From the NCBI RefSeq assembly GCF_963921235.1, contig NC_086108.1:15314001-15378000 (forward strand): 64,000 bases of DNA, written 5' to 3'. This document shows, piece by piece, positions 1 through 57,532 of the stretch (positions are counted from its first letter, which is position 1; every line of letters begins with the position of its first letter). This DNA is from Mobula hypostoma. Taxonomy: Eukaryota. The translations under genes were made by a program, and so were the position numbers. Below the pieces are notes generated by a model. The model saw only the letters and a list, made by a program, of their open reading frames with translations. It was not told the DNA's origin and did no database searches.

Positions 1-999
1 CTTTCACTGGCCTGTGGGTAGATGAGGTGGGGGGCAGGGGGGAAGACTACTTGGATTTGTGTACCAGTGTGCAGTCGCCCTTGTTCTTCCAGGCTCCAGT
101 GAGGATAGGACAGGCTTCCTTGAAGGATTTTAGTGTGAAACCAGTGATTAAGATGATTCTGCCATATGACCATGACTGATTCCAATTAGTTCCATATACC
201 TGCGGTTTCACTGTTTGTCAAAAATCATATGGCCTCTATTTTCAGGATGAGGTGATGAATTGGGAAGTTAATAGACTGTATTAGGTGGTTTCTGTCTGGC
301 AGAGATGGTGAAAGCATGGGTTATTGTTCATTGTGTAGTTATTGAGTTTTTTCCTCTTAACAGATTCTGGTTTCTGTTCTCAAAAGTATGCTGGGGCTAC
401 TGACTGGCCTTTAACAGGTGGGCACTATGTTCAATCCTCATTCTGCTATTTTAACTGTCCTTTCACTATGATGTATGAATTAGGTCTCCTAGTCATGAGG
501 ACAAGTAATTGACTGATATGATAGGCAGTCCATTTGTTTTAAAATGTCTCCTGTAAGCCTGGTTTTTAAAGTACCTTTTTCTGTCTCAGGTGTCAGAATG
601 CAGCTGCTGTGACTATTGGTGAGTGTCTGGCTTTTTTCCTTCACAATAAGTACCTATGATGAGAGCAGAAAACTTGAATTGTCCATGAAAACTGTCTTGA
701 TATTAGCTCTAACTGATCAGGTTATGAAGATCACTGGATGTGAGTAAGGCATGTTTGTCAGCAGTGACCTGACATTCCTATCTTTTCCAGAACTGGGGTT
801 CATTGGGAGCAGCAGTGGAAGTTGGCTTGGGTCCTCATGATTGGCAGGGTAAGTGCTGATGTTCTTGGGAGATATTTAGTATTTGAGCTTCTGAATTGTG
901 TAGTGTGGTAGTGATTTATCTCACTGGTGTGGTGGATCAGACTATTTAAACTCTGATTTCTGGATTGTTTTGCAGTATTAATTTTTGTTCTCTGTTGTA

Positions 1000-3119: not shown

Positions 3120-3645
3120 AACATGAGGAATTATGCAAAAACATCAAAGTTGCTGGTGAATGCAGCAGACCAGGCAGCATCTCTAGGAAGAGGTAGTTGA
3201 TGTTTTGGGTCAAGACCCTTCGTCGGGACTAACTGAAGGAAGAGTTAGTAAGAGATGCGAAAGGGGGAGATCCAAAATGATAGACAGGAGGGGGAGGGAT
3301 GGAGCCAAGCACTGTAAAGTTGATTGGCAAAAGGGATATGTGAGGATCATGGGACAGGAGGCCCAGGGAGGGAAAAGAAGGGGTAACCCAGAGGCTGGGC
3401 AAGGGGTATAGTGAGAGGGAGAGAAAGAATGTATATAAATCACAGATGGGGTATGGGGGGGAGGTGGGGCATTAGAAGTTAGACAAGTCGATGTTCATGC
3501 CATCAGAATATAAGGTGGTGTTCCTCCAACCTGAGTGTGGCTTCATCTTTACAGTAGAGGAGGCTGTAGATAGACATAACAGAATGGGAGGTGGAATTAA
3601 AATGTGTGGCCATTGGGAGATCCTGCTTTCTCTGGTGGACAGAGC
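3120..3645 (-). mobile_element. Penelope-like element 3' fragment (end of GIY-YIG and tail), decayed
   Basis: Reverse complement of roughly 24660-25280, with deletions; DGMNIDLSNF C-terminus. Confidence 0.85.
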
Positions 3646-4406
3646 TGGTATTGTACCAGTTTCTTGTCTCAAGGTGGTAGCTTGGTTGTTTAGAGTTTAG
3701 ACAGAACAGTTCAATTCCTCTGCCATTTCAGTAATTCAGATCTGAGTAGGGGAAACTTTGTTACTGCTTACAGAAAGTAGGCAGTATAGTCTCTCCCCAA
3801 TTTTTGATATACTGATCACTACATTTCTCTGGTACAAATGATTTGACAATACATTGCAGATACAAATCCCAATTCAGACATGAAACTGCAGATACTGCAC
3901 ACAATGTTTGTCAGCACCTGTGAAGTGGTAAAATACAGTAAGTGGGCCCAAAACGGTGACTGACCTGTGGCGTTAGTTCCTCCAGCATTTTGTGTACTGA
4001 TAAACTACTGAGGCTGTTCAAGCAGATTTTGTAACTACTACCAGAGATGAAGGGGTTAAATTGAGGAAAGTCACCTGGGACTTCTCGCTGGAATTCAGAA
4101 GAATGAGAGTGGATCTTACAGAAACACAAAATTTTAAAAGGGATAGATAAGATGGAAGTAGGAAAGTTGTTTCCATTGGTAGGTGGGACTACGAGGGGAC
4201 ATTACCTCAAGATTTAGGATGGAGATGATGAGAAACTTTTTCCCAGCGTGGTGAATCTGGAATCCTCTGCCCAGGGAAGCAGTTGAGATTTCACTAAATA
4301 TATTTAACCCTTACATACTGTAAAAACACCTTTTTTAAAACTGAAATTTGATGACTTTACCTAAAGTGACCCAAAACGTGCAAAAATGAAAACAATTCAT
4401 ATAGGC

Positions 4407-4632
4407 CAGACAGCATCTCTAGGAAGAGGTACAGTTGACGTTTCAGGCCGAGACCCTTCGTGAGGACTAACTGAAGGAAGAGTTAGTAAGAGGACTAACT
4501 CTTCCTTCAGTTAGTCCTCACGAAGGGTCTCGGCCTGAAACGTCAACTGTACCTCTTCCTAGAGATGCTGCCTGGCCTGCTGCGTTCACCAGCAACTTTG
4601 ATGTGTGTTGCTTGAATTTCCAGCATCTGCAG
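4407..4632. mobile_element. Fold-back mini-element derived from the Penelope-like tail
   Basis: Perfect 77-bp arms 4411-4487 and 4494-4570 with a 6-nt loop; flanking repeat AATTCATATAGGC at 4394-4406 and 4633-4645. Confidence 0.9.
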
Positions 4633-5034
4633 AATTCATATAGGCTATATTAATTACTGCAAAAGGAGGACTTTCCATTAAACGGCATTACATACCAGAC
4701 TGCAGCCAATCAGTATACTCTGCACCACACCTTGTTTCAGATGTCATGTGCTGAATCTCTGCTAACTCCTAAGGAAATAGAAGGGCTATTGGGCTTCTTA
4801 ATTTGCACTTGGGTGCTGGTCTAACCCTCTCCGATGAGGACTGGTTCATTGACTTCAAGTTTCTCCTGAAGACTACAATGTCAGCTGCTTGGTCCTGCTT
4901 ATACTAAGTGAAAGGTTATGACACTGCTCAGCTAAATTTATAATCTCCCTCCATCAGTACCTTTGATACGACCCCAAACTTGAATATAGGTGTAAATCTG
5001 GGGGATAAGCACACAGCTCTGTGATGATGGAGCA

Positions 5035-5640
5035 AGCCAGGCAGCAAGAGGTAGTCGACGTTTCAGGCCAAGACCCTTCGTCAGGATTAATTGAAGGAAG
5101 AGCGAGTAAGAGATTTGAGGGGGGGGGAGATCCAAAATGATGGGAGAAGACAGGAGGGGGAGGGATGGAGCCAAGAGCTAGACAGGCGATTGGCAAAAGG
5201 GATATGAGAGGATCATGGGACGGGAGGCCCAGGGAGAAAGAAAGGGGGGGGGGAACCCAGAGGATGGGCAAGGGGTATAGTCAGAGGGAGAAAAAGGAGT
5301 GTGAGAGAAAGAATGTGTGTATATAAATAACAGATGAGGTACGGGGGGGGGCATTAGCGGAAGTTTGAGAAGTCAATGTTCATTCCATCAGGTTGGAGGC
5401 TACCCAGACGGAATATAAGGTGTTGTTCCTCCAACCTGAGTGTGGCTTCATCTTTACAGTAGAGGAGGCCATGGATAGACATGTCAGAATGGGAATGGGA
5501 TGTGGAATTAAAATGTGTGGCCACTGGGAGATCCTGTTTTCTCTGGTGGACAGAGCGTAGGTGTTCAGCAAAACGATCTCCCAGTCTGCGTCGGGTCTCG
5601 CCAATACATAGAAGGCCACATCGGGAGCACCGGACCGTGC
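5035..5640 (-). mobile_element. Penelope-like element 3' fragment with GIY-YIG endonuclease C-terminal part
   Basis: ORF 5354..5704(-) reads VRCSRCGLLCIGETRRRLGDRFAEH...MNIDFSNFR; the tail carries the hammerhead core. Confidence 0.9.
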
Positions 5641-5974: not shown

Positions 5975-6669
5975 GTAAAAATGACAGGAAGATATGGTAA
6001 GTGGGTATAGGTGAAGTAATGGTTCCCATTCTACCTTATCTAAATCCAACACTGGTAGCACTTGCTGTTCCAGCATATACTCCACCTTGACACTTCACGC
6101 ATTTCACTGTATCTGTTCCCCCCTCCCCACCTTCCTCTTTGTTTGCCTTATCTATCATTCACCTGTTATTGTCTCCCAACTCTACATCCGCTTAGCTCGC
6201 TTACCTGACACTAACTGCCTGTCGTCTTCCATTCCTCACAGTGTGTGCTTTCTCCACACAGTCCTGATGAAGAGTTTCGACCTGAAACATCAGCGTCCCA
6301 ACTATCCTCTCAAAGATGCTGTTCAACCCATTGAGTGCTTACCGCAGATTGCGTTGCTGCAGTCTCTTGTGTGTCTCAGGAATGATTAGCATGATGACAA
6401 ATAATTGGTGGTATTGACAATGAGGGGTGTCGTTTTAGGCAGCTACAGGGTGGTATTAGCAGGCAGGGCAATGGGAAATGGAATATAACCCCAATCTGGT
6501 GATGCATCAAGGGAGGGCGAGTAGGGATAGGGCATGTTGAACGATAAGGCTTTATCGAATATTGGTGTACACATCCGAGGATCATTGAGGGTCAGATATA
6601 GTGAAAAAACATACACTATACTGTACTTCATTAGTTAGGGTGTGGAATAAATGAGTAGGGAGGTTATGA

Positions 6670-7250
6670 TATAACTGACGCGGAAGTATCTCAAAAACAG
6701 TGATCATAACTACATCAACGGAGTTGTGAATACTTCCGCGTGACACATACTATTTGCTGATAGTTAGAGCCTGGCGCGTGCTACCAGGAGTTATTCAGAA
6801 AATAAGCAATCCAAATGTGGTCAATTTGCATTGATCCTCGAGATCAGAGACCAAGGAATGAGCGCTAGCATTGCTCCCCGAACACATACACAACATCGCA
6901 ATTGATGCGCAATACCAGACACAACGAAAGACAATCAGCAGCATCCACCATCAGAGTGGCAGGTACTAGGCATGCGCATAGCGGAAACCGCGCGCAAGCA
7001 GCATTGGGCACGCGCAGCAGGAACGGCCGCCCTTTGGTTGTACTGAGCATGCGCGGACGGAGTCCGGTGCTAGTAGCGACGATGTTGGCGTCGGCCGAGG
7101 CCGGGACGTAGCCGAAGGTAGCGGCAGCGCAGCCAGGAGAGCCCGGTAAGGACTGCCGGTGATCGGCAACACGTCACAACTTGGGATGTTAAAAATGCAA
7201 ACACGAGGCCAACTTGGGATGTGACAGCTCGTCACAACGCCTCCCTCTGA
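6670..7250 (+). promoter_or_regulatory. CpG-island-like promoter of RABGAP1L
   Basis: Strong local CpG/GC enrichment in a CpG-poor background, and not part of a recognisable TE. NRF1-like GCATGCGCA (6970-6978) and GCATGCGC (~7047); ETS/GABP-like CGGAAGT (6681) and its reverse ACTTCCG (6732); followed by a splice donor at 7146. Confidence 0.8.
7040..7145 (+). other. RABGAP1L: Putative non-coding exon 1 (5' UTR) of RABGAP1L; start coordinate approximate
   Basis: CCG|GTAAGG donor (GT at 7146-7147) at the 3' side of the CpG island. The ATG-bearing exon has its own acceptor, so an upstream exon is required. The TSS cannot be fixed from sequence. Confidence 0.65.
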
Positions 7251-7916: not shown

Positions 7917-8112
7917 AATCACAAATGAGAAATCTGTAGGTGCTGAAAATCCGAGCAACACACACAAAATGCTGGAGGAACTCAGCAGGCCAGGCAGCAT
8001 CTATGGAAAAAAAGTACTGTCGACGTCTCGGACTGAAATGTCGACTGTACTTTTTTCCACATATGCTGCATGGCCAGCTGAGTACCTCCAGCATTTTGTG
8101 TATGTCGCTTGC
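7917..8112. mobile_element. Fold-back PLE-tail mini-element
   Basis: Imperfect hairpin centred near 8030; TSD ATTTATTTGATTG at 7904-7916 and 8113-8125. Confidence 0.88.
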
Positions 8113-8321
8113 ATTTATTTGATTGGTCTAATTGAGTCTCCTAGCAACAAATATCAAAGGGAGGTGGTCTGACTCTTGGAGTTGGTCATTGATTGGTCTT
8201 TTTGTGGGTCAGCTGTAACTTACTTTTCACTTAACACCATTAATGATAAAGGAAGACATTGAGTGCATGGTAAAGCTAGTCAGAAATGTAAAAACATACT
8301 AAAAGTTTTTGTAACAACAAG

Positions 8322-9090
8322 AGTAAGGTGGTTCAGTTTGGTGGGTCAAATATGATGACAGAATATAGTATTAATGGTGAGACTCTTGGCAGTGTGGAGG
8401 ATTAGAGGGATCTTGGGGTCCGAGTCCATAGGACACCTAAAGCTGCTGTGCAGGTTGACTCTGGTTAAGAAAGCATATGGTGCACTGGCCTTCATCAATC
8501 GTGGTATTGAGTTTAGGATCCGAGAGGTAATGTTGCAGCTATATAGGACCCTGGTCAGACTCCACTTGGAGTACTGTGCTCATTTCTGGTCACCTCACTA
8601 TAGGAAAGATGTGGAAACCATAGAAAGGGTGCAGAGGAGATTTACGAGGATGTTGCCTGGATTGGGGAGCATACCTTATGAGAATAGGTTGAGTGAACTT
8701 GGCCTTTTTTCCTTGGAGCAATGGAGGATGAGAGATGACCTGATAGAGGTGTATAAGATGATGAGAGGCATTGATCGTGTGGATAGTCAAGAGGCTTTTT
8801 CCCAGGGCTGAAATGGCTAGCACAAGAGGGCACAGTTAAGTAGGTACAGAGGAGATGTCAGGGGTAAGTTTTTTACGCAGAGAGTGGTGAGTGCGTGGAA
8901 TGAGCTGCCGGCGACGGTGGTGGAGGCGGATACGATAGAATCTTTTAAGAGACTCCTGGATCGGAACATGGAGCTTAGAAAAATAGAGGGCTATGGGTAA
9001 CCCTAGGTAATTTCTAAAATGTGTACATGTCTGGCACAGCATCGTGGGCGGAAGGGCCTGTATTGTGCTGTAGGTTTTCTATGTTTCTAT
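8322..9090 (+). mobile_element. CR1 LINE 3' end
   Basis: LYRTLVRLHLEYCAHFWSPHYRKDVETIERVQRRFTRMLPGL (CR1 ORF2 C-terminus); (TTCTATGT)n-type tail at ~9077-9090. Confidence 0.92.
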
Positions 9091-11304
9091 AACTGTGCAG
9101 GAAGAACTCAGTAGGTTGAACAGCATCTGTGGGAGAAAGGAGCTGTTAACATTTTCGGACGAAACCCTGCATCAAGTTTATGCAATGTTCCTTTCCAACC
9201 AAAGATGCTGCTTGATCCGCTGAGTTCTTCCAGGTGATTCCAGCATCTGCAGTCTCCTTTGGCTCTGAAAGTTTTTTTTTTGCATTTGGGCAAAAGGGAC
9301 ATGGTAGATTTAAATAGTTTGTACCTGTCTTTATAGAGAATACACTGAACATTCCAAAAATGTTTGTTAGTGATTACACAATATTTACTATCATTCAAAA
9401 AATAATGCTTCTCACCTTCTTTCAGTTCCTGTTTTACAGCTAACAAACATTTTCACTTCTGACCTTATAGAAGATAAGTCATTAGTAAAGCAGCTGAAGG
9501 TAGTTGAGCCTCGAACACAGCCATGAGTAATTCTTGCACTGATGCACTGGAGCTGGAATGATTGAATTTAGAACAGTACATACAGCACAGGAACAGGCCC
9601 TTCAGAATGTTGACCAACTAGTAATTAACTGCTTAATTAAATGAATTCTGCCTACACAAGGTTCATGCTGCTCCATTCTCTGCATCTGCACGTGCCTTCT
9701 AAGCGTTTTAAACACCTCTGTTGTATTTGCTCCCTCTCCCGCCCAGGCACTTTCCACACGATGTTGAAAAAGAAACTTGCCTGCGTGCCCCCTTTGAACT
9801 TAACCCATATCACTTAAAAAGCATGCCGTCTGTTATTGGACATTTTAATCCTGAGGAAAATGATACTGGCTTCTACTTTATCTTGCTTGTCATAAGTTGA
9901 TAATATAGGCCTTCTCTCAGCCTATTGTTTCAGAAAGAAAATGCCAACTTTGTCCAACCCCATCTGATAGCACATGCCCTTTGTATGTAAGTGCTGTGAA
10001 GGATCCTGCCATTATCGGTGTACTCTCCATTTATATTTGGTCTCCCAAAGTGCAGCACTTCGCATCTGAAACATAGAAACATAGAAAACCTACAGCACAA
10101 TGCAGGCCCTTCGGCCTACAGAGCTGTGTCGAACTTTAGAAATTATCTAGGGTTACCCATAGCCCTCTATTTTTCTAAGCTTCATGTACCTATCCAAGAG
10201 TCTCTTAAAAGACCGCATTGTATCCGCCTCCACCACCATTGCCGGCAGCCCATTCCACGCACTCACCACTCTCTGCATAAAAAAACTTACCCCTGACATC
10301 TCCTCTGTACCTACTTCCAAGCACCTTAAAACTGTGTCCTCACCTGTTAGCTATTTCAGCCCTGGAAAAAAGCCTCTGGCTATCCACCCAATTAATGCCT
10401 CTTATTATCTTATACACCTCTGTCAGGTCATCTCTCATCCTCCGTTGCTCCAAGGAGCAAAGGCCGAGTTCAGTCAATTTATTCTTATAATGCATTCTCC
10501 CCAATCCAGGTAACATCCTTCTAAATCTCCTTTGCACCCTTTCTATAGTTTCCACATCCTTCCTGTAGTGAGGTGACTGGAACTGAGCACAATACTCCAA
10601 GTGTGGTCTGACAAGGGTCCTATATAGCTGTAACATTACCTCTGGGCTCTTGAACTGAAATCCACAGTTGATGAAGGTCGATATATCATATGCCTTCTTA
10701 AACACACAGTCAACCTATGCAGCCGCTTTGAGTGTCCTGTGGACTCGGACCCCAAGATCCCTTTGATCCTCCACACTGCCAAGAGTCTTACCATTAATAC
10801 TATATTCTGCCATCATATTTGACCTACCAAAATGAACCACCTCATACTTATCTGGGTTGAACTCCATCTGCCACTTCTTAGCACGGTTTTGCATCCTATC
10901 AATGTCCCGCTGTAACCTCTGACAGCCCTCCACACTATCCACAACACACCTAACCTTTGTATCATCAGCAAATTTAATAACCCATCCCTCCACTTCCTCA
11001 TCCAGGTCATTTATAAAAATCACAAAGAGAAGGGGTCCCAGAACAGACCCCTGAGGCACACCTCCACGGACCTCCATGCAAAATATGACCCGTCTACAAC
11101 CACTATTTGCCTTCTGTGGGCAAGCCAATTCTGGATTCACAAAGCAATGTCCCCTTGGATCCCATGCCTCCTTACTTTCTCAATAAGCCCTGCATGGGGT
11201 ACCTTATCAAATGCCTTGCTGAAATCTATATACACTACATCTACTGCTCTTTCTTCATCAATGTGTTTAGTCACATCCTCAAAAAATTCAGTCAGGCTTG
11301 TAAG

Positions 11305-11792: not shown

Positions 11793-12459
11793 CAAAGGCA
11801 TGATCTTCCTTTGACAAAGCCATGCTGACTATTCCTAATCATACTATGCCTAACCAAATGTTCATAAACCCTGCTTCTCAGTATCTTCTCCATCCACTTA
11901 CCAACCACTGAAGTAAGACTCACTGGTCTATAATTTCCTGGGCTATCTCTACCCCCTTTCTTGAATAAGGGAACAACATTTGCAAACCTCCGATCCTCCG
12001 AACTTCTCCCTTCCCCATTGATGATGCAAAGATCATCGCCAGAGGCTCAACAATCTCCTCCCTCGCCTCCCACAGTAGCCTGAGTTATATCTCGTCCGGT
12101 CCCAGTGACTTATCTAACTTGATGCTTTCCAAAAGCTCCAGCACATCCTCTTTCTTAATGTCTACATGCTTAAGCTTTTCAATCCGCTGTAAGTCATCCC
12201 TACAATTGCCAAGATCCTTTTCTGTAGTGAGTATTCATTAAGTACCTCCGCTACCTCCTCCAGTTCAATACACACTTTTCTACTGTCACACTTGATTGGT
12301 CCTATTCTCTCACATCTTATCCTCTTGCTCTTCACGTACTTCTAGAATGCCTTGGGTTTTTTCTTAATCCTGCTCGCCAAGGACTTCTCATAAACCCTTC
12401 TGGCTCCCCTAATTTCATTCTTAAACTCCTTCCTTCTAGCCTTTTAATCTTCTATCTCA

Positions 12460-14661
12460 CTACGACCATCAGGCCATATTCCTCCTCCCGGCTTACAAAC
12501 AGAAACTGAAGCAGGAGGTCAAGGTGTCAAAAGTAGTGTTGCGTTGGATGGAGGAAACAGATGAGGTCCTCCGTGACTGCTTTGAGTTGGTGGACTGGTT
12601 AGTATTCAAGGACTCAGCAGCTGACCTCGATGAGTATGCCTCAGCTGTCATGGACTTTATTTGGAAATGCACGGAGGACTGTGTGTCTCGCAAGACGATC
12701 CGGGTATTCCCTAACCGGAAACCTTGGATGAATTATGAGGTCAAGTCCCTTTTAAAGGCTAGAGCTGCGGCTTTTAGGTCAGGAGATACCAGTCGCTACA
12801 CGGAATCCAGGCGTGAAGTCCGGAAAGCCATTAAGGACGCCAAGAGGCAATATGGAGCCAAGTTGGAAGCCCAGGCTAACCAAAGGGATGCCAGTAGACT
12901 ATGGCAGGGTCTAAATGAGATCACTGGGCGCAAAGAAAAGGCTGGGAATATCAATAACTGTGGCGCTTCTCTTCCTGACGAACTTAACATATTCTACGCA
13001 AGATTCGAACAGAAGAGGAGCGTCCTGCTCCCTCCGGATGAACCGGACCTGGTGGCATCGAGATTCATCGTCACTGAGGAGGACGTTAGAAGGGCCTTCC
13101 TGAAGATAAATCCAAGGAATGCGGCGTGCCCAGATGGCATCCCAGGACGGGTTCTCCGGGCCTGTGCAAGCGAGCTAGCTGGAGTGTTTGCTGACATCTT
13201 CAACTGCTCCTTGCTTCAGTCTAAGATCCCCTTGTGTTTTAAGAAGGCAACAATAATCCCAGTGCCGAAGAAGAGCAAGGTGGCATGCCTGAATGACTAT
13301 CGACCTGTGGCTCTGACATCAATTGCTATGAAGTGCTTCGAGAGATTGGTTATGGCACACATCAACCACACCCTACTGGTCAACCTCGACACTTTGCAAT
13401 TCGCCTACCGGAGCAACAGGTCAACGGCAGATGCCATCTCTCTGGCTCTACATTCCTCCTTAGAACACCTGGAGAATAAAGACGCATACATAAGGCTCCT
13501 TTTCATTGACTACGGCTCTGCCGTTAATACCATCACTGATTCCTAAGCTCCGGAACCTGGGCCTTAGCACTCAGATCTGCAGCTGGATCTTCAACTTCCT
13601 CCCAGACGGGATCCAGGCTGTAAAAACAGGGGACAAGCTCTCCTCTACAATCACTCTGAGCACCGGTGCCCCACAAGGCTGTATACTCAGCCCCCTGCTG
13701 TACTCACATGATTGTGTAGCTAAGTTTCCATCAAACTCAATATATAAGTTTGCTGATGACGCAACAATTGTAGGCCGTACCTCGGGTAATGATGAGTTTG
13801 AGTACAGAGAAGAAATTAAGAACCTGGTGGCATGGTGCGAAGACAATAACCTATCCCTCAACGTCAGCAAGATGAAGCAATTGGTTGTTGACTTCAGAAG
13901 GAGTAGCGGACCGCATGACCCAATTTACATCGGTGGCGCGCAAGTGAAACAGGTCAAAAGCTTTAAGTTCCCTGGGGTCAATATCACAAATGACCTGACT
14001 TGGTCCAACCCAGCAGAGTTCACTGCCAAGAAGGCCCACCAGCGCCTTTATTTCCTGAGAAAACTAAAGAAATTTGGCCTGTCCCCTAAAACCCTCACTA
14101 ATTTTTATAGATGCACCGTAGAAAGCATTCTTCTAGAGTGCATCACAACCTGGTATGGAAGTTGTCCTGTCCAAGACCGAAAGAAGCTGCAGAAGATCGT
14201 GAACACGGCGCAGCACATCACACAAACCAATCTTCTGTCCGTGGACTGACTTTACACCGCATGCTGTCGGAGCAGTGCTGCCAGGATAATCAAGGACATG
14301 ACCCACCCAGCCAACACACTTTTCGTCCCTCTTCCCTCCGGGAGAAGGTTCAGGAGCTTGAAGACTCATACGGCCAGACTTGGGAACAGTTTCTTTCCAA
14401 CTGTGATAAGACTGCTGAACGGATCCTGACCGGATCTGGGCTGTACCCTCCAAATATCCGGACCTGCCTCTCAGTTTTTTTGCACTACCTTACTTCCCAT
14501 TTTTCTATTTTCTATTTATGATTTATAATTTAAATTTTTAATGTTTACTAATTTTAACTATTTTTAATATTTTTAATATTTAATGTTTGTAATCCAGAAT
14601 CAAATATCGCTGTGATGATTGTACCAATACCAATTGTTTGGCGACTATAAAGTATAAAGTA
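12460..14661 (+). mobile_element. Rex1/Babar LINE, 5'-truncated, frameshifted RT
   Basis: ORFs 12524..13546 and 13506..14249: CLNDYRPVALTSIAMKCFERLV, LQFAYRSNRSTADAI, GAPQGCILSPLLYS, KFADD; (ATAAAGT)n tail. Confidence 0.92.
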
Positions 14662-22475: not shown

Positions 22476-23054
22476 TGCATATTCATTATGTGTAAATGAG
22501 GCTTTTCACTAAGTGCTCACAAGTGCACAAACAGGAATAGGCCATAAGGTAATAAGGTGTTTTTATCTGCTCTAACAAATTTTCAGTTCTGCACCACTTC
22601 CCTACACTAACCGGGTCAGACAGCATCTATAGAGGGCAATGGACAGTCAATGTTTTGGATCAGTGCAGATATATGGTCTCAATCCAATACATCAACTGTC
22701 CACTTCCCTCCATTGAGACTGAGTTCCTCCGGCGCCTTGTGTGTTGTTCCAGATCCCAGTCTCTTGAATCTCCCTGCCATAATGCTTGATTTTCTCCAAT
22801 AATTAAAAATCTGTTCCTTCCTGCCTTGAATATATGTAATGACTGAGCATCTGCAGCATCTTGGGTAGTGATTCAGCATCCTTTAGGTGAATGTGAGTTT
22901 TCTTAATTCCAGTCCTGAATGATGAACCTCTTAGTTTCAAATTATAATCCTTGGTTCTAGACACCCAGCAAGGAAAATTAATCAGTTCCTCATCTATCCC
23001 ATCAGGCTTGTAAAAGTGTAGTATATTCCAGCATTTCATTCTACTGAACTCTAT

Positions 23055-25289
23055 TGCTCTCCACTCCCTCCGTACTAATCCTAACATTATTATTAAACCC
23101 GCTGATAAAGGGGGTGCTGTTGTAGTCTGGCGTACTGACCTCTACCTTGCCGAGGCAGAGCGACAACTCGCGGATACCTCCTCTTATTTACCCCTCGATC
23201 GTGACCCCACTAAGGAGCACCAGGCCATTGTCTCCCACACTATCAACGACTTTATCCGCTCAGGGGATCTCCCATCCACTGCTACCAACCTTATAGTTCC
23301 CACACCCCGCACTTCCCGTTTCTACCTCCTAGCCAAGATCCACAAACCTGCCTGTCCTGGCCGACCTATTGTCTCAGCTTGCTCCTGCCCCACCGAACTC
23401 GTTTCTGCATACCTCGACACTGTTTTATCACCCCTTGTTCAATCCCTTCCGACCTATGTTCGTGACACTTCTCACGCTCTTAAACTTTTCGATGATTTTA
23501 AGTTCCCTGGCCCCCACCGCTTTATTTTCACCATGGATGTCCAGTCCCTATATACTTCCATCCCCCATCAGGAAGGTCTCAAAGCTCTACGCTTCTTTTT
23601 GGATTCCAGACCTAATCAGTTCCCCTCTACCACCACTCTGCTCCGTCTAGCAGAATTAGTCCTTACTCTTAATAATTTCTCCTTTTGCTCCTCCCATTTC
23701 CTCCAAACTAAAGGTGTAGCTATGGGCACCCGTATGGGTCCTAGCTATGCCTGCCTTTTTGTTGGGTTTGTGGAACAATCTATGTTCCGTGCCTATTCTG
23801 GTATCTGTCCCCCACTTTTCCTTCGCTACATCGACGACTGCATTGGCGCTGCTTCCTGCACGCATGCAGAACTCGTTGACTTTATTAACTTTGCCTCCAA
23901 CTTTCACCCTGCCCTCAAGTTTACCTGGTCCATTTCCGAGCTCTGGAGACAGCTTATCCACTGATGTCTACTATAAGCCTACTGACTCTCACAGCTATCT
24001 GGACTATTCCTCTTCTCACCCTGTCTCTTGCAAAAACGCCATCCCCTTCTCGCAATTCCTCCGTCTCCGCCGCATCTGCTCTCAGGATGAGGCTTTCCAT
24101 TCTAGGACGAGGGAGATGTCTTCATTTTTTAAAGAAAGGGGCTTCCCTTCCTCCACTATCAACTCTGCTCTTAAACGCATCTCCCCCATTTCACGTACAT
24201 CTGCTCTCACTCCATCCTCCCACCACCCCACTAGAAATAGGGTTCCCCCGGTCCTCACCTACCACCCCACCAGCCTCCGGGTCCAACATATTATTCTCCG
24301 TAACTTCCGCCACCTCCAACGGGATCCCACCACTAAGCATATCTTTCCCTCCCCCCCTCTCTCTGCATTCCGCAGGGATCGCTCCCTACACAACTCCCTT
24401 GTCCATTCGTCCCCCCCATCCCTCCCCACTGATCTCCCTCCTGGCACTTATCCGTGTAAGCGGAACAAGTGCTACACATGCCCTTACACTTCCTCCCTTA
24501 CCACCATTCAGGGCCCCAAACAGTCCTTCCAGGTGAGGCATCACTTCACCTGTGAGTCGACTGGGGTGATATACTGCGTCCGGTGCTCCCGATGTGGCCT
24601 TTTATATATTGGTGAGACCCGACGCAGACTGGGAGACCGCTTTGCTGAACATCTACGCTCTGTCCGCCAGAGAAAGCAGGATCTCCCAGTGGCCACACAT
24701 TTTAATTCCACATCCCATTCCCATTCTGACATGTCTATCCACGGCCTCCTCTACTGTAAAGATGAAGCCACACTCAGGTTGGAGGAACAACACCTTATAT
24801 TCCGTATGGGTAGCCTCCAACCTGATGGCATGAACATTGACTTCTCTAACTTCCGCTAGGCCCCACCTCCCCCTCGTACCCCATCTGTTACTCTTTTTTA
24901 TGCACACATTCTTTCTCTCACTCTCCTTTTTCTCCCTCTGTCCCTCTGAATATACCTCTTGCCCATCCTCTGGGTCACCCCCCCCCCCCCGTCTTTCTTC
25001 CCGGACCTCCTGTCCCATGATCCTCTCGTATCCCCTTTTGCCTATCACCTGTCCAGCTCTCGGCTCTATCCTTCCCCCTCCTGTCTTCTCCTATCATTTT
25101 GCATCTCCCCCTCCCCCTCCAGCTTTCAAATCCCTTACTCACTCTTCCTTCAGTTAGTCCTGACGAAGGGTCTCGGCCTGAAACGTCGACTGCGCCTCTT
25201 CCTATAGATGCTGCCTGGCCTGCTGCGTTCACCAGCAACTTTGATGTGTGTTGCTTGAATTTCCAGCATCTGCAGAATTCCTGTTCTGA
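23055..25289 (+). mobile_element. Penelope-like element (Neptune-like), 5'-truncated, RT + Cys-rich linker + GIY-YIG, one internal deletion
   Basis: Open frame IIKPADKGGAVVVW...KIHK...GRPIVS...MDVQSLYTSI...GVAMGTRMGPSYA...RYIDD to ~23938. A shifted frame then reads VYYKPTD...CKRNKCYTC...VIYCVRCSRCGLLYIGET...MNIDFSNFR* (24859). TSD ACTGAACTCTAT at 23043-23054 and 25290-25301. Confidence 0.95.
25156..25191 (+). ncRNA. Minimal type I hammerhead ribozyme motif in the PLE tail
   Basis: AGTC-CTGACGA-AGGGTCTCGGCCT-GAAAC-GTC-GACT: stem I AGUC/GACU, core CUGANGA and GAAA, a short stem II, GUC cleavage triplet and palindromic ACGU in place of stem III. Confidence 0.75.
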
Positions 25290-25770
25290 ACTGAACTCTA
25301 TGCCTGGTCTGCTTAATCTTTCCTCTTAGGACAGATCTGCCATTTTAAGAGTCATTCTGGCAAAGCTAATTGCACTTCCTCTTTTGCAAGTTTAGAGAGA
25401 CCAGATATTCTAGGCCCAGTCTCAGTAATGCTTTTTTTATTACTGCAGTAAGATGTCTTTAGTCTTGAACTTAAATCTCCTTGCAATAAAGGCCAACATA
25501 TAGTTTATCTCCCTAATTATTTCCCTGCATGTTAACTTTCAGTGATTTATTTGTAGGGACACCCATATCCTGCACCCAGACATCAACATCTTTCAATCAT
25601 TTTACCATTTAAGAAATACTCCATATTTTTATTTTTATTTAATCAATGGGGATGTCCCCTCCTTTAGTGTTACATTTAACCTGCCACATCCTCATCCATT
25701 GACTTTATCTAATTGTACCCCTCTTGAGCTCAATCATCAGGCTCTTGGACAAAGGGGATAACTACACTCA

Positions 25771-26793: not shown

Positions 26794-27375
26794 TCACTTG
26801 CCCATCCATTGATATGTACCCACAACCAATGATCTCACTTTAAGGACTCTTTATCTTGTAATCTCATGTTCTCATTATTTATTGCTATTTATTTATATTT
26901 GCAATTGCACAGTTTGTTGTCTTCTGTACTCCAGTTGATTTTTCATTGATCCAGTTATAGTTACTATTCTATAGGTTTGCTGAGTATGCCCATAGGAAAA
27001 TGAATCTCAGGGTTGTATATGGTGACATATGTACTTTGATAATAATGTTTACTTTGAACTTTGTTCTGCATCCTCCTCACACTTCAGATCAGAACTTAGT
27101 GCGTGAGGAATTACTGGCAATAACCTAAACAAGAAACATTTTGCATTTGAAGACCATGCAAGTGGTGACTGAGAACTTTTTCTAAATTTTTAAAGAATAT
27201 GGTTTAATTTAACTGACTCTGTTAGCATTTAGCTTCTTTTATTTACCTAGTTTCTCATCCATGGCTTCTTTCTCCCTAAGGAGTTTAATGTGGAAAATGG
27301 AAGAAAAATAACATATTTTTAGAGATCCTCTCTCACAATCTGATCTTTCAGGGTGCTGCTGTGATTTGTTGAGAC

Positions 27376-27516
27376 ATGGATGGCCAGGCTGGTTTGAGGA
27401 AAGTGAGCAGTTCCTCAGACTCTGTTTCCACACTGAACAGCGAAGAGTTTGTCATTGTGTCTCAGCCAGCTGAGGACTCTTCCTCCACCAATGGAGAAGA
27501 CAAACCAGCATTGAAG
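27376..27516 (+). CDS. RABGAP1L: Rab GTPase-activating protein 1-like, first coding exon (exon spans 27352-27516)
   Basis: MDGQAGLRKVSSSSDSVSTLNSEEFVIVSQPAEDSSSTNGEDKPALK matches the RABGAP1/RABGAP1L N-terminus as I recall it (SSDSVxTxNSEEFV...KPxLK). Acceptor tttcAG at 27350-27351, donor AAG|GTAATC at 27517; 141 nt, phase 0. Confidence 0.93.
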
Positions 27517-28592: not shown

Positions 28593-30060
28593 CAGTGGTA
28601 TGCATAAGTTTGGGCACCCCTGGTCAAAATTTTTGTTACTGTAAATAGCTAACTGAGTAAAAGATTACCTCATTTCCACCCTGCATGGTCAGTACTTAGT
28701 AACAACCCCTTTGGCAAATATCACAGCTTGTAAACGCTTTCTATAGCCAGCTAAGAGTCTTTCAATTCTTGTTTGGGGGATTTTCACCCATTCTTCCTTG
28801 CAAAAGGCTTCTAGTTCTGTGAGATTCTTGGGCTATCTTGTATGCACTGCTCTTTTGAGGTCTATCCACAGATTCTGGATGATGTTTAGGTCAGGGGACT
28901 GTGAGGGCCATGGCAAAACCTTCAGCTTGCGTCTCTTGAGGTAGTCCATTGTGGATTTTGAGGTGTGTTTAGGATCATTATCCTGTTGTAGAAGCCATCC
29001 TCTTTTCACCTTCAGCTTTTTTACAGACAGTGTGATGTTTGCTTCCAGAGTTTGCTGGTACTTAATTGAATTCATTCTTCCCTCTACCAGTGAAATGTTC
29101 CTTGTGCCACTGGTTGCAACACAAGCCCAAAGCATGATCGATCCACCCCCGTGCTTAACAGTGGAGAGGTGTTCTTTTCATGAAATTTTGCACGCTGTTT
29201 TCTCCAAACATACCTTTGCTCATTACGGCCAAAAAGTTCTATTTTAACTTCATCAGTCCACAGGACTTGTTTCCAAAATGCATCAAACTTGTTTAGACGT
29301 TCCTTTGCAAACTTCTGATGCTGAATTTTGTGGTGAGGACGCAGAAAAGGTTTTCTTCTGATGACTCTTCCATGAATGTCATATTTGTGCAGGTGTCGCT
29401 GCACAGTAGAACAGTGCACCACCACTCCAGAAGGTCTTTTGCAGTCAAACGGAGGTTTTGATTTGCCTTTCTAGCACTCCTACGAGCAGTTCTCTCGGAA
29501 AGTTTTCTTGGTCTTTCAGACCTCAACTTGACCTCCACCATTCCTGTTAACTGCCATTTCTTAATTACATTACGACTGAGGAAACGGCTACCTGAAAACA
29601 CTTTGCTATATAGCCTTCTGCTGCTTTGTGGGCATCATTTATTTTGATTTTCAGAGTGCTAGGCAGCTGCTTAGAGGAGCCCATGGCTGCTGATTGTTGG
29701 GACAAAGTCTGAGGAGTCAGGGTATTTATAAAGCTTTGAAATTTGCATCACCTGGCCTTTCCTAACGATGACTGTGAACAAGCCATAGCCCTAACAAGCT
29801 AATTAAAGTCTCAGACCTTGGTAAAAGTTATCTGAGAGCTCAAATTTCTTGGGGTGCCCAAACTTTTGCATGGTGCTTCTTCCCTTTTTTTCACTCTAAA
29901 ATTATACAAAACAAAAATAATACACTAATCTTGCTTAAAATGTTGAAAAGAATGTTTCATCTTTAATTTTATGACTTTTGGAGATCAGTTCATCTTCTAC
30001 TCAACTATTCACAGTAACAGAAATTTTGACCAGGGGTGCCCAAACTTTTGCATGTTACTA
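28593..30060 (-). mobile_element. Tc1/mariner transposon with disrupted DD34E transposase
   Basis: TIRs CAGTGGTATGCATAAGTTTGGGCACCCCTGGTCAAAAT and its complement; VLWTDE, QQDNDPKHTSK and WPSQSPDLNII motifs split across frames. Confidence 0.93.
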
Positions 30061-31483: not shown

Positions 31484-31768
31484 GTGTTGGTGCGTGGCCA
31501 AGTGGTTAAGGCATCGGTCTAGTGATCTGAAGGTCGCTAGTTTGAGTCTCAGCTGAGGCAGCGTGTTGTGTCCTTGAGCAAGGCACTTAACCACACACTG
31601 CTGTGCAACGACATCGGTGCCAAGCTGTATCGGCCCTAGTGCCCTTCCCTTGGACAACATCGGTGGTGTGGAGAGAGGAGGTCGTCCATACAACCTTGCC
31701 CAGGCCTGCGCCCTGGAAACCTTCCAAGGCGCAAATCCGTGGTCTCACGAGACTAACGGATGCTTATA
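31484..31768 (+). mobile_element. tRNA-derived CORE-like SINE
   Basis: A box TGGCCAAGTGG, degenerate B box GTTTGAGTC, CORE-like GTGTCCTTGAGCAAGGCACTTAACC. Confidence 0.75.
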
Positions 31769-32174: not shown

Positions 32175-32337
32175 ATCACTTGTAATGGGAATGAGCAGCA
32201 GCTAAAGACAGCGCTGGAGGAGGGCCAGAAAGATTATGTACTAACTGGAGCAGGAGGAGAGAAGGGAAGCAGAAGCCTGATGTCCCGAGGAGAACAAAAG
32301 CCTCCACAATTAACCTTGGATTCCTCTGCAATGGAAG
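32175..32337 (+). CDS. RABGAP1L: RABGAP1L second coding exon
   Basis: ctccAG acceptor and G|GTAAGT donor; 163 nt, phase 0 to 1. Encodes ITCNGNEQQLKTALEE...QKPPQLTLDSSAME, resembling the recalled IVSNGDEQLEKAMEE...KPSLQLILDPSNTE of RABGAP1L. Confidence 0.9.
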
Positions 32338-39499: not shown

Positions 39500-40250
39500 G
39501 AAGCAGAACAAGTGCTACCACTGGCTGTACACCTCCTCCCTCATTACCATTCAGGGCCCCAAACAGTCCTTCCAGGTGAGGTGTCTGTTGGGGTCATATA
39601 CTGTCCAGTGCTCCCGGTGTGGCCTCCTGTATATCAGTGAGACCCGACTTAGATTGGGAGACTGGTTTGCCAAGCATCTATGCTCTGTCCGCCAGAAGAA
39701 GTGGGATCTCCCAGTGGCCACCCATTTTAATTCCACTTCCCATTCTGATATGTCAATCCATGGCCTCCTGTACTGTCAAGATGAGGCCATTCTCAGGTTG
39801 GAGGACCTTCTATTCTGTCTGGGTAGCCTCTAACCTGATGGCATGAACTTCAAATTCTAGAACTTCCAGTAATGCCCCCATCCCCTTCAGCAGTCCCGAT
39901 CCCATTTTCTTTCTCTCTCCTCATCTTCTTGCCTGCCTATCACTTCCCTCTGGTGCTCCTCCCCCCTTTTCTTTCTTCCATAGACTTGTATCTTCTCCTA
40001 TTAGATTCCTCCTTCTCCAGCCCTGTATCTCTTCCACTAATCAATTTCCCAGCTCTTTACTTCATCCCTCACCCTCCCAGTTTCACCTTTCACCTTGTCT
40101 TTCTCTTTCCCCTCCCCTCATCTTTTAAATCTACACCTCATCTTTTTCTCTCCAGACCTGCTGAAGGATCTCAACCCGAAACGTTCACTGTACTCTTTTC
40201 CATAGATGCTGCCAGGCCTGCTGAGTTCCTCCAGCATTTTGTTTGTGTTA
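39500..40250 (+). mobile_element. Older Penelope-like 3' fragment (GIY-YIG + tail)
   Basis: VQCSRCGLLYISETRLRLGDWFAKHL; degenerate hammerhead-like CTGCTGAAGGATCTCAACCCGAAACG at ~40158. Confidence 0.88.
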
Positions 40251-43468: not shown

Positions 43469-43676
43469 AGCTGCCTGTACTAAAGGTTGCATCCCCGACT
43501 GCTGAGGAAGAGGAGAGTGTACTGTTTAACAAGTTAACCTACCTTGGATCCACGAAGGTCACCTCTCCACGCAATGAAGCAGAGGCTCTTCGTGCTATGG
43601 CCAAACTGCGTTCCAGTTGTCAAGCTCCTATTCCAGTTACTTTGTATGTACCTAATGTTGCTGACGGATCTTTAAG
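43469..43676 (+). CDS. RABGAP1L: RABGAP1L third coding exon, start of PTB/PID domain
   Basis: ttttacAG acceptor and AG|GTAGGT donor; 208 nt, phase 1 to 2, in frame with the previous exon. Encodes LPVLKVASPTAEEEESVLFNKLTYLGSTKVTSPRNEAEALRAMAKLRSSCQAPIPVTLYVPNVADGSL. The motifs SVLFNKLTYLG, PRNE, EALRAMA and PVTLYVPNV favour RABGAP1L over RABGAP1. Absent from the ORF track. Confidence 0.95.
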
Positions 43677-43751: not shown

Positions 43752-44836
43752 CAGCTGCAACAAAAAGTTTGTGAATCCTTTGCAATTACCTGGTTTTGTG
43801 CATTAATTACTCACAAAATGTGGTCTGATCTTCATCTGAGTCACAATAATAGACAGACACAATCTGCCTAAACTAATAACATACAAGCAATTGTACTTTT
43901 CACGTCTTTATTGAACACATGTTTTCATCATTCACAGTCTAGGCTGGAAAAGTATGTAAAGCCTTGTATTTAATAACTGGTAGGAACCCCTTTAGCACTA
44001 ATAACCTCTACCGAACATTTCCTATAGCTGCTGATCAGACTTGCACAATGGTAAGGAGGAATTTTACACGATTCCTCCATATAAAACTCATCAATATTCC
44101 TGGGATACCTTGCATGAACAGCTCTCTCCAGGACATACTACAGCATCCCAATTGGGTTAAGTTCTGGACTCTGATTTGGCCATTCCAAAGAATGAATTTT
44201 CTTCTTTTTAAACCATTCTGTTGTTGATTTACTCTTGTGTTTCGGATCATTGTCTTGTTCCATCATCCAACTTCTATTAAGCTTCAGGTGAATGACAACT
44301 ACCCTGACATTCTCCTGTAAAATGTCTTGATAAATATTGAATTCATTGTTCCCTTAACAATTGCAAACTGTCCTGGTCCTGAGGCAGCAAAGCAGTCCTA
44401 AATCATGATGTTCCTTCCACTGTGCTTCACAGTTGGGATGAGGTTTTGGTATTGGTGTGCAGTGTCCTTTTTCCTCCAAATATAGCAGCGCGCATTTCTG
44501 CCAAGAAGTTCAACTTTTATCTTATCTGTCCACAGAAGTGTTGTGGAACATCCAGGTTGCAAACTTGAGACTTACAGCAGTGTTTTTTTTTGGAAAGCAG
44601 TGGTGTCTTGTTCAGCGTTTTTCTTATAGTGGACTCTCCTGCCGAAGGGTTTCTGCCTAAAATGTCGACTGTACTCTTCTAGATGCTGCATGGTTGCTGA
44701 GTTCCTCCAGCATTTGTGTATGTTGCTGGCTTTATCTATTATTGTGACTTAGATGAAGCTCAGACCACATTTTATGAGTAATTAATGCAGAAAACCAGGT
44801 AATTGCAAAGGGTTCACAAGCTTTTTCTTGCAACTG
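43752..44836 (-). mobile_element. Internally deleted Tc1-like transposon, with a short PLE tail near its right end
   Basis: ~105-bp TIRs CAG(C/T)TGCAA(C/G)AAAAAG..., TA on both flanks; transposase remnants on the minus strand; PLE-tail sequence at ~44637-44730. Confidence 0.85.
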
Positions 44837-47374: not shown

Positions 47375-48049
47375 GCACAAAAAATGCTGGTGAACGCAGC
47401 AGGCCAGGCAGCATCTATAGGAAGAGGTACTGTCGACGTTTCGGGCTGAGACCCTTCGTCAGGACTAGCTGAAAGAAGAGATAGTAAGAGATTTGAAAAT
47501 GGGAGGGGGAGGGGGAGATCCAAAATGATAGGAGAAGACAGGAGGGGGTGAGATGAAGCAAAGAGCTGGAAAGTTGATTGGCAAAAGGGATATGAGGCTA
47601 GCGAAAGGAGAGGATCATGGGACGGGAGGCCTAGGGAGAAAGAAAGGGGGAGGGGAGCCCAGGGGATGGGCAAGGAGTTATAGTGAGAGGGACAGAGGGA
47701 GGGGAAAAAAAAAAGGAGATAAATAAATAAATAAATAAGGGATGGGGAACGAAGGGGAGGTGGGGCATTAACTGAAGTTAGAGAAGTCAATGTTCATGCC
47801 ATCAGGTTGGAAGCTACCCAGACGGAATATAAGGTGTCGTTCCTCCAACTTGAGTGTGGCTTCATCTTGATGGTAGAGGAGGCCGTGGATAGACATATCA
47901 GAATGGGAATGGGATGTGGAATTAAAATGTGTGGCCACTGGGAGATCCTGCTTTCTCTGGCGGAGAGAGTGCGGGTGTTCAGCGAAAGGGTCTCCCAGCC
48001 TGCATCGGGTCTTGCCAATGTATAGAAGGCTGCATCGGGAGCACCGGAC
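47375..48049 (-). mobile_element. Penelope-like 3' fragment with intact hammerhead core (47432-47466)
   Basis: Reverse complement of ~24578-25240; the minus strand reads AGTCCTGACGAAGGGTCTCAGCCCGAAACGTCGAC. Confidence 0.9.
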
Positions 48050-53542: not shown

Positions 53543-54669
53543 CAAACACAAGGAAATCTGCAGATGCTGGAATTTCAAGCAACAAACTTAAAAGTTGCTG
53601 ATGAACGTAGCAGGCCAGGCAGCATCTCTAGGAAGAGGTACAGTCGACATTTTGGGCCGAGACCCTTCGTCAGGACTAACTGAAAGAAAAGATAGTAAGA
53701 GATTTGAAAATGGGAGGGGGAGGGGGAGATCCAAAATGATAGGAGAAGACAGGAGGGGGAGGGATGAAGCCAAGAGCTGGAAAGTTGATTGGCAAAAGGG
53801 ATATGAAAGGATCATGGGACGGGAGGCCTAGGGAGAAAGAAAGTGGGGGGGGGGATCCCAGAGGATGGACAAGGAGTATAGTGAGAGGGACAGAGGGAGA
53901 AAAAGAGAGAAGAAAATAATAATATATATAATAATAATAAATAAATAACAGATGGGGTACGAGGGGGAGGTAGGGCATTAACGGAAGTTAGAGAAGTCAA
54001 TGTTCATGCCATCAGGTTGGAAACTACCCAGACGGAATATAAGGTGTTGTTCCTCCAACCTGGCTCTGTCCGCCAGAGAAAGAAGGATCTCCCAGTGGCC
54101 ACACATTTTAATTCCACATCCCATTCCCATTCTGATATGTCTATCCATGGCCTCCCCTACTGTCAAGATGAAGCCACACTCAGGTTGGAGGAACACCACC
54201 TTATATTCCGTCTGGGTAGTCTCCAACCTGATGGCATGAACATTAACTTCTCTAACTTCTGTTAATGCCCCACCTCCCCTTCGTACCCCATCCATTATTT
54301 ATTTATTATTATTATATATGTATATTATTCTTTTTCTCTCTCTTTTTCTCCCTCTGTGCATCTCACTATACTTCTTGTCCATCCTCTGGGATTCCCCCCT
54401 CCCCCTTTCTTTCTTCCCTGGCCTCCCATCCCATGATCCTTTCATATCCCTTTTGCCAATCAACTTTCCAGCTCTTGGCTTCGTCCCTGTCCCTTCTGTC
54501 TTCTCCTATCATTTCAGATTTCCCCCTCCCCCTCCCACCTTAAAATCTCTTGCTATTTCTTCTTTTAGTTAGTCCTGACGAAGGGTCTTGGCCCCAAACG
54601 TCGACTGTACCTCTTCCTAGAGATGTTGCCTGGCCTGCTGTGTTCACCAGCAACTTTTAAGTGTGTTGC
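53543..54669. mobile_element. 1.1-kb fold-back Penelope-like insertion (inverted 3' ends)
   Basis: Minus arm 53543-54061 joined to plus arm 54062-54669; TSD TAAGAGTAACTTTCA at 53528-53542 and 54670-54684. Confidence 0.93.
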
Positions 54670-56578: not shown

Positions 56579-56782
56579 CACACATCTAAGTTGCCGGTGA
56601 ACGCAGCAGGCCAGGCAGCATTCCTAGGAAGAGGTACAGTCGACGTTTCGGGCCGAGACCCTTCGCCCTGAAATGTCGACTGTACCTCTTCCTAGAGATG
56701 CTGCCTGGCCTGCTGCGTTCACCAGCAACTTTGATGTGTGTTGCTTGAATTTCCAGCATCTGCAGAATTCCTCGTGTTTGCG
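56579..56782. mobile_element. Fold-back PLE-tail mini-element
   Basis: Hairpin centred near 56660; 16-bp TSD ACCTTAAATCTTGTAA at 56563-56578 and 56783-56798. Confidence 0.92.
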
Positions 56783-57532
56783 ACCTTAAATCTTGTAAAT
56801 GTATCTGTCTCCATTGTAAAATGTGATAGCTACAAAATTCTCTATAGTAGCTCACTCACTTCATATCAACTCAGTGATAGGCAAGTTATCATTGAAACAC
56901 ATCAAGCTCTGTTCTGTGCTACACATAATCTTACCTTGGACTTTAATCTTGCCCTTTGGCAGAACTGGCAATTACAGCGGCATTTGAAGCATTGTGCATC
57001 TACTGAGCCTAGATTTAAAGAAACCAGTTGATTGGGATGACCAATGTCTGAGGTAATAGCTTTTCTTTTGGATTATTTGGTTATTTCCATATTTTCAAAA
57101 GTCCAAGGTTCTGAAAATATGGCCATAGGAGCCTCAATGCAGACAGCTTTTTCATCAAAGTGACACATTCTGACCATTATCCTCAGTTTCCTTCAGACCA
57201 ATTTTGGATCCAACATTACACTTTCCCTTGAGTCCTGTGGACTTCCACTTCCATGACCAGATCGTTAAGATCTTGCCAAGTGCTTGGCTGAAATTTATGT
57301 GGGCAATATCAAATTCCTTTTCTTCACTGCCAGTCCTCTCTAAACAACAGTCAAAGAGATGAAGTACAATGTACAATCTAACGGCTATACGTTGTAATAG
57401 AGGAAGTACTAAAGAGTTTAGCATCTTTGAAATTGAATAGATTACCAGGACCAGGTGAAATACATGCCAGCTTTGTAAACGAAGTAAGTAAGTAAATTAT
57501 GGAAGTTCTAACTGACATTTTGCTGGTTTCTT

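Follow-up and report, generated by a model that had tools for sequence, protein, structure and literature searches.

A stretch of 36 bases in the ray Mobula hypostoma, on the strand of the host gene RABGAP1L and 2.2 kb upstream of its first coding exon, reads like a minimal hammerhead ribozyme. The locus raises three linked questions: is the motif a hammerhead, to what does it belong, and would it cut the host transcript? We address these questions across a window of 64,000 nucleotides of contig NC_086108.1, by which we mean the whole stretch of DNA that was analyzed; its features are collected in Table 1. The reading we favor, at a probability of about 0.8, is that a Neptune-type Penelope-like element (PLE) carries a minimal type I hammerhead in its 3′-terminal repeat, and that the copy at 25156 sits in a truncated, frameshifted insertion and is likely not to cut the RABGAP1L transcript.

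Table 1. Features of the window, with positions counted from its first letter.
Feature	Position	Strand	Remarks
Minimal type I hammerhead motif	25156-25191	+	36 bases; compared with PMC4209133 consensus
Stem I, 5′ strand	25156-25159	+	part of 25156 motif
Catalytic core (CUGANGA)	25160-25166	+	part of 25156 motif
Unpaired extra A before stem II	25167	+	part of 25156 motif
Stem II	25168-25179	+	pairs 25168-25171/25176-25179, 4-nt loop
GAAA box	25180-25183	+	part of 25156 motif
ACGU palindrome in place of stem III	25183-25186	+	self-complementary
NUH/GUC site	25185-25187	+	C17 = 25187; predicted cut 25187/25188
Stem I, 3′ strand	25188-25191	+	part of 25156 motif
Neptune-type PLE	23055-25289	+	5′-truncated, single insertion; target-site duplication, self-comparison
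Target-site duplication, left copy	23043-23054	+	12 bp
Target-site duplication, right copy	25290-25301	+	12 bp
Reverse transcriptase part of PLE ORF	23055-23940	+	DKG; YIDD 23827-23838; 5′ end missing
Thumb, linker, GIY-YIG endonuclease	23942-24859	+	stop 24857-24859
Pyrimidine-rich tail	24860-25155	+	acceptor-like tract, AG at 25152-25153
Element 3′ end	25192-25289	+	conserved box ~25205-25230; optional terminal extension ~30 nt
Second copy passing full descriptor	47431-47466	-	G-C at 10.1-11.1; 3-bp stem I; antisense to RABGAP1L
Copy with intact core	5053-5088	-	stem I only 2 contiguous pairs; outside likely transcript, antisense
Older-subfamily copy	6260-6295	+	core boxes kept; palindrome and stems broken
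Fold-back insertion, single	4403-4637		13-bp duplication; holds 4433-4468(-) and 4513-4548(+)
Inverted insertion, single	53545-54670		15-bp duplication; holds 53642-53677(-) and 54571-54606(+)
Fold-back insertion, single	56577-56783		16-bp duplication; copies 56638-56673(-)/56663
Decayed copy	3195-3230	-	7 differences from young-copy majority
Decayed copy, related subfamily	40154-40189	+	core A6 mutated; sense, RABGAP1L intron
Decayed copy	44635-44670	+	core and GAAA mutated; sense, RABGAP1L intron
Predicted non-coding first exon, RABGAP1L	7050-7145	+	CpG-rich; donor 7146; presumed NRF1-like palindromes
RABGAP1L first coding exon	27352-27516	+	ATG 27376; residues 1-47 of P0121
RABGAP1L second coding exon	32175-32336	+	start approximate
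RABGAP1L third coding exon	43469-43676	+	100% to Mobula protein

The motif and the element that carries it

An earlier, sequence-only reading of this DNA had written out the motif and drawn a fold for it. The sequence is confirmed. Within the fold, stem I, the core, the GUC site, and the palindrome stand as drawn; stem II moves to the register that leaves A25167 unpaired, which is predicted to be 1.4 kcal/mol better than the A-U register (-6.0 versus -4.6 kcal/mol). An unpaired extra base before stem II is a hallmark of the published minimal hammerheads (PMC4209133). With one additional U.G pair, stem I reaches 5 bp, and helix II consists of 4 bp closed by a G.U pair; both fit the range of the published alignment (~3-5 bp for helix I). 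Positions 10.1-11.1 are usually G-C in the published motifs, with G.U in some members (PMC4209133); here they are G.U at 25156 and G-C at 47466. The letter at 11.1 is C in 18-40% of the depth in the contigs of four runs, a count that leans to the reference, so that U at 11.1 appears to be a state of the family and not a private lesion.

We built a full descriptor from the published consensus: the core, an optional extra base, helix II of at least 3 bp, GAAA, the palindrome, UH, and helix I of at least 3 bp. Two copies in the window pass it, 25156(+) and 47466(-), versus none in 200 dinucleotide shuffles of both strands, which speaks against a chance likeness to a hammerhead. The copy at 5088(-) passes only with helix I relaxed to 2 bp. 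A loose core pattern yields 5 matches in the window against 0.91 expected. The copies all come from a single repeat family, cannot be counted as independent, and amount to one signal seen repeatedly. None of the 13 Rfam matches with E up to 10 is to a hammerhead family, presumably because stem III is missing, and pattern scans of viral and metagenome contigs gave 0 loci each. Judged by its letters, the 25156 motif matches the published minimal PLE hammerhead: each feature open to testing was either found or gave no clear result, and none failed. It is the least decayed copy in the window.

The surrounding insertion (23055-25289) is 2.2 kb long and holds one terminal repeat and one hammerhead; self-comparison reveals no upstream tandem copy of it. 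Reverse transcriptase (RT) is followed by a C-terminal GIY-YIG endonuclease, with matches that fall slightly under the Pfam curated cut-off for RVT_1 (E 7e-6) and just under it for GIY-YIG (E 1.7e-4), and a frameshift near 23940, with ~13 codons lost, splits the two frames. The hammerhead starts 297 nt past the GIY-YIG stop, on the ORF strand and inside the duplication, in agreement with the earlier assignment to a PLE tail on the strand of RABGAP1L. The translation contains a C-x4-C-x2-C linker (24455-24481) and CCHH residues in the endonuclease. A CX2-5CxxC linker together with the endonuclease CCHH defines Neptune/Nematis-type EN+ PLEs, so the element should be Neptune or Nematis, with Penelope/Poseidon and Hydra excluded (PMC8557442); we provisionally call it Neptune-type, a name given by linker motif and host group. 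The closest proteins come from rays and sharks, the best at 94% (best 120 of 452 matches). Ends of the family cluster near 25255 and 25282-25285, which fits the optional extension of 30-40 bp that PLEs can carry. Besides this extension, the family shows truncated 5′ ends and inverted partner copies.

Three ray gene models named for unrelated host genes (P0004, P0008, and P0055) contain the endonuclease region of this PLE, reflecting either exonization or an annotation artifact. There is a strong donor-like site at 24532/24533.

Copies in the window and conservation of the motif

Scanned without gaps, the window shows 13 sites that differ from the motif by at most 12 mismatches, and all 11 coordinates or pairs that had been listed before are among them. 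That list was not complete: a profile search, built on 12 of these copies, recovers about a dozen further relatives that are older and more decayed. All listed copies exist, and 4433/4513, 53642/54571, and 56638/56663 prove to be one inverted insertion each, with a duplication of 13-16 bp. Core G5 is mutated in both copies of the first and G12 in both copies of the second; in the third, the arms are joined inside the hammerhead, and the 5′ core is missing from both. Intact cores had been reported at 25156, 47466, and 5053; the cores hold, and stem I of the last is reduced as listed in Table 1. Similarly, the copy at 6260 retains the core boxes of the older variant it was taken for and only 12 of the 20 double-hammerhead pairs. 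Intact copies in the window number 1 sense and 1-2 antisense, with no bias; under the full descriptor, the window holds no intact sense-strand copy besides 25156. The hammerhead had been called the most repeated short motif, a claim that fails: the most frequent words belong to the adjoining tail on its 3′ side (7-8 times, as against 6 for the best 12-mer of the hammerhead), and a GA microsatellite occurs more often.

Short fold-backs of two inverted PLE tails are seen at 4403-4637, 56577-56783, 7929-8118, 9101-9231, and 22606-22710, and the predicted hairpins of the first two reach -189.5 and -152.4 kcal/mol. In Rfam, such fold-backs resemble miRNA precursors, with scores under the gathering thresholds; two miRNA-like matches, at 4451 and 56628, prove to be insertions of this kind. 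Fold-backs that lie inside the gene could introduce double-stranded RNA into the pre-mRNA.

We gauged variation in the family from the contigs of 4 of 22 listed runs, presumed to be of RNA, aligned to 25050-25310 at 80% likeness (9095, 4008, 106, and 1501 contigs); these contigs provide sequence variety only, and not expression, strand, level, or RNA ends. In the rows listed, 10 of the 36 motif positions have an alternative letter that reaches 4% in one run or more. Nine of the 10 are CpG transitions, and the tenth rests on minor depth. The core's only common alternative falls at free position 7, which is U in 70% of the depth in X13. Among the 20 positions on either side of the motif, 5 and 8 are variable, some at 50-90%, in part through deviations of the 25156 copy itself. 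Loose ends gather at 25156/25192 (91/107 in X1, 39/36 in X5, and 11/14 in X13, in the rows listed; no such pile-up is among the rows listed for X19), as would be expected if other subfamilies share the motif and not its immediate flanks.

The copies within the window extend this pattern. Seven older copies differ from the young majority in 10 of 63 non-CpG core cells and in 143 of 227 flank cells, a contrast that is partly circular, since copies were found by their likeness to the motif and some flanks are non-homologous. In 7 young copies there is no significant contrast (2/63 core versus 22/223 flank differences, p 0.12). Overall, the sequences support the conclusion that subfamilies keep the motif better than its immediate neighbors on both sides. 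The sequence-only reading had held that a core no better conserved than the neighboring tail would, together with a lack of cleavage, speak against a ribozyme; the core does exceed its direct flanks, and it is equaled in the older copies by a box on its 3′ side (25205-25230; 9/56 versus 10/63). Conservation alone is therefore no proof of catalysis. Covariation adds little: in 14 decayed window copies, 76.3% of pairs are kept versus 76.4% in shuffles, 417 of 500 shuffles reach the score, and slid controls pair at 21-41% versus 76%.

The equal conservation of the 3′ box, together with a predicted ground state that is a rod and not a hammerhead, suits a different account of why the motif persists: it may serve the template RNA structurally or by binding protein, or simply ride along as a passenger, with cleavage dispensable for transposition. 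Hammerhead mutants of an anole PLE left insertion in vitro unchanged (PMC11167929), and Naiad PLEs thrive without canonical hammerheads, with parasitism raised by the authors (PMC8557442). This account sits poorly with catalytic letters that are kept across subfamilies while free position 7 varies; moreover, the anole motif does cleave and gives C3-G8 rescue (PMC11167929). We regard it as unlikely, and favor a hammerhead that serves the element.

The 25205-25230 box has the highest depth in the runs and is kept across old subfamilies. It is a candidate signal for protein binding or for the start of reverse transcription.

Folding, the host transcript, and the proposed role

Folding gives the drawn hammerhead little weight as a monomer, which the isolated 36-mer adopts with a probability of ~0.001. 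The rod that the 36-mer prefers instead ties up the cleavage strand by pairing it with core positions 5-8, and the folding z-score is 0.0. The last 16 nt of the pyrimidine-rich tail are predicted to pair with the core and stem II; with this native leader, stem II probability drops from 0.95 to 0.00 in 25156 and 5088, and is not abolished in the 47466 copy. All 20 double-hammerhead pairs can form at 25156, and the best dimer fold is more stable than the active dimer by 19 kcal/mol, or by 40 with flanks. These energies omit non-canonical core contacts, and published members with the same core letters imply the same inactive rod, so the folding argument for inertness is weak alone. Taken together with the lack of an intact partner, the unfavorable folding suggests that the 25156 copy is likely inert for RABGAP1L RNA.

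Homology and short motifs identify the host gene on the + strand as RABGAP1L. Three coding exons in the window together correspond to residues 1-171 of a Mobula protein; an ab initio exon scan of the window did not detect them. Two palindromes, at 6970 and 7047, which we take to be NRF1-like, and a strong donor at 7146 accompany the predicted first exon. If this exon lies at ~7050-7145, the copy at 6260(+) falls outside the transcript, upstream of the likely RABGAP1L promoter, and 25156 is the only intact sense copy in the part of the gene seen. The 25156 copy had been placed on the transcribed strand of RABGAP1L intron 1; gene and strand hold, and its location in intron 1, which the sequence suggests, depends on the predicted exon.

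Several other features of the window were noted along the way. A SNORD47-like C/D snoRNA (139-207(+), 45.3 bits; gathering 50) lies among exon-like pieces at ~1-1100, and a poly(A) signal near 1085 ends these short pieces of the window start. A GAS5-type host gene adjoining RABGAP1L likely has its 3′ end here, an arrangement that we assume from synteny. A weak tRNA-like match at 31493-31555(+) (21.6 bits) is probably the head of a SINE, frames at 28833-29634(-) resemble by eye a broken Tc1/mariner transposase, and CR1/L2-like LINE fragments occur at 8359-8811, 10340-11179, 12440-14249, and 61421-62673.

Could the 25156 copy act in its host nonetheless, cutting RABGAP1L first-intron pre-mRNA in trans or with help from a PLE protein, and so affect expression? 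Its position on the gene's strand 2.2 kb before the first coding exon would allow this, as would its complete set of 20 possible double-hammerhead pairs, and the family is abundant in the run contigs, so partners could exist. Against it, the window holds no intact sense partner; a trans dimer, with 12-14 intermolecular pairs, lies far above the competing folds; the motif belongs to a repeat insertion whose ORF is broken and which is bounded by a duplication; intact copies favor neither strand; and the first exon of RABGAP1L is itself a prediction. The analysis lends no support to the idea that the sense intronic position matters: the insertion carries just one hammerhead, the window has no further intact sense copy, and folding is predicted to favor inactive forms. 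We judge activity in the host to be very improbable. Still less credence goes to the broader proposal that PLE-tail hammerheads of rays are switchable cutters, with sense copies like 25156 cutting host pre-mRNA in trans: a pyrimidine tract with AG would lock the core until it is spliced off or displaced by protein. If true, this would create a genome-wide layer of intronic cleavage sites, here in RABGAP1L intron 1. Finally, a chance likeness in a CpG-rich repeat tail, for which one may cite the absence of a hammerhead among the Rfam matches, the folding z-score, and covariation not above shuffles, is scarcely credible given 0 descriptor matches in 200 shuffles of both strands and a PLE terminal-repeat position, unpaired nucleotide, and palindrome exactly as published (PMC4209133).

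A pyrimidine tract with YAG abuts stem I at 25135-25153, 4493-4510, 3230(-), 6240-6261, and 40134-40155, in several subfamilies and with a branch-point-like word in some copies. In Drosophila virilis Penelope, the intron end likewise abuts stem I (PMC4209133). No conserved donor that would go with such an intron is seen in the 7 aligned tails. Pyrimidines dominate the whole length of the tail, and the acceptor-like site may therefore be due to chance.

For the favored reading, that of a hammerhead in the terminal repeat of a Neptune-type PLE, published PLEs suggest how the motif would work in an active parent element. Tandem copies would be transcribed together, and two hammerheads would swap strands: the ACGU palindromes would form a 4-bp stem III, and each stem I would form between partners. 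The element's protein would probably assist, being needed to undo the inactive rod. The RNA would be cut after the C equivalent to 25187, trimming the tandem precursor, and reverse transcription would begin 70-100 nt downstream of the cut. With such a start, every insertion would carry the motif, however 5′-truncated, which would account for its recurrence on both strands; inserted copies would then decay, mostly by CpG loss. By analogy, trimming of tandem precursors by a strand-swapped double hammerhead, probably protein-assisted, is the likely role in the family. The in vivo role of PLE hammerheads is the question that occupies the field, and a truncated single copy such as 25156 does not make it easier; it would matter if intact sense copies proved to cut host pre-mRNA, and strand bias in introns could be tested in a genome that holds copies in very large numbers and of graded age.

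Comparison with known systems

Hammerheads in the introns of amniotes occur in single copy, have the canonical form, and have been kept across species, whereas 25156 is a minimal motif in a young repeat insertion. A domesticated hammerhead of this type was rejected for the locus, given a minimal motif in a repeat with a duplication in place of a canonical helix III and a single copy. The two are alike in being type I and on the sense strand of a host intron; RECK and related hammerheads are the amniote examples named in PMC6155905.

Animal non-LTR retrozymes are also type I, are dimer-dependent in vertebrates, and have been proposed to derive from PLE terminal repeats (PMC7229834; 10.64898/2026.07.22.740005). 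Retrozymes are non-coding head-to-tail tandems (PMC7229834), whereas in the ray the motif occurs singly or inverted and is attached to sequence that encodes RT and endonuclease; this identity was rejected on those grounds.

PAc, a Poseidon element of Anolis (Frangieh et al. 2024, PMC11167929), likewise has a minimal hammerhead in its terminal repeat. The distance from the cut to the insertion end is 85-92 nt in PAc and ~68 and 95-98 nt in the ray, the two ray values reflecting the ~30-nt optional extension. PAc differs in its clade (Poseidon), in an ORF start that overlaps the ribozyme, and in its measured, protein-assisted activity, whereas the ray copy is known from sequence alone; the anole hammerhead cleaves only with the element's protein, and RNA-seq ends at its cut site are absent in the results cited (PMC11167929).

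The closest counterparts are the minimal hammerheads of metazoan PLEs (Cervera and de la Pena 2014, PMC4209133). There, monomers do not cleave and dimers cleave weakly; dimer cleavage was also described by Lunse et al. 2017, as reviewed in PMC6765202. The earlier reading described the PLE tail of this lineage as a ribozyme cassette; that it is special to the lineage is not supported, since such hammerheads are a general rule for metazoan PLEs, and the arrangement has been known since 2014 (PMC4209133). The term search of its supplement and the part of its alignment examined contain no cartilaginous fish. Our literature search, with most subscription journals outside it, found nothing relevant on PLE hammerheads in shark, elasmobranch, or Mobula, and a 2026 preprint sampled one cartilaginous fish, which had hammerhead-bearing repeats (10.64898/2026.07.22.740005). 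Relative to the 2014 motifs, the ray family has a short helix II (4 bp) and G.U at 10.1-11.1, here and in most contigs. The catalytic boxes, the extra nucleotide, the palindrome without helix III, and the sense position in the terminal repeat are all alike (PMC4209133). The locus otherwise changes nothing in this class; what it adds is a family from a cartilaginous fish.
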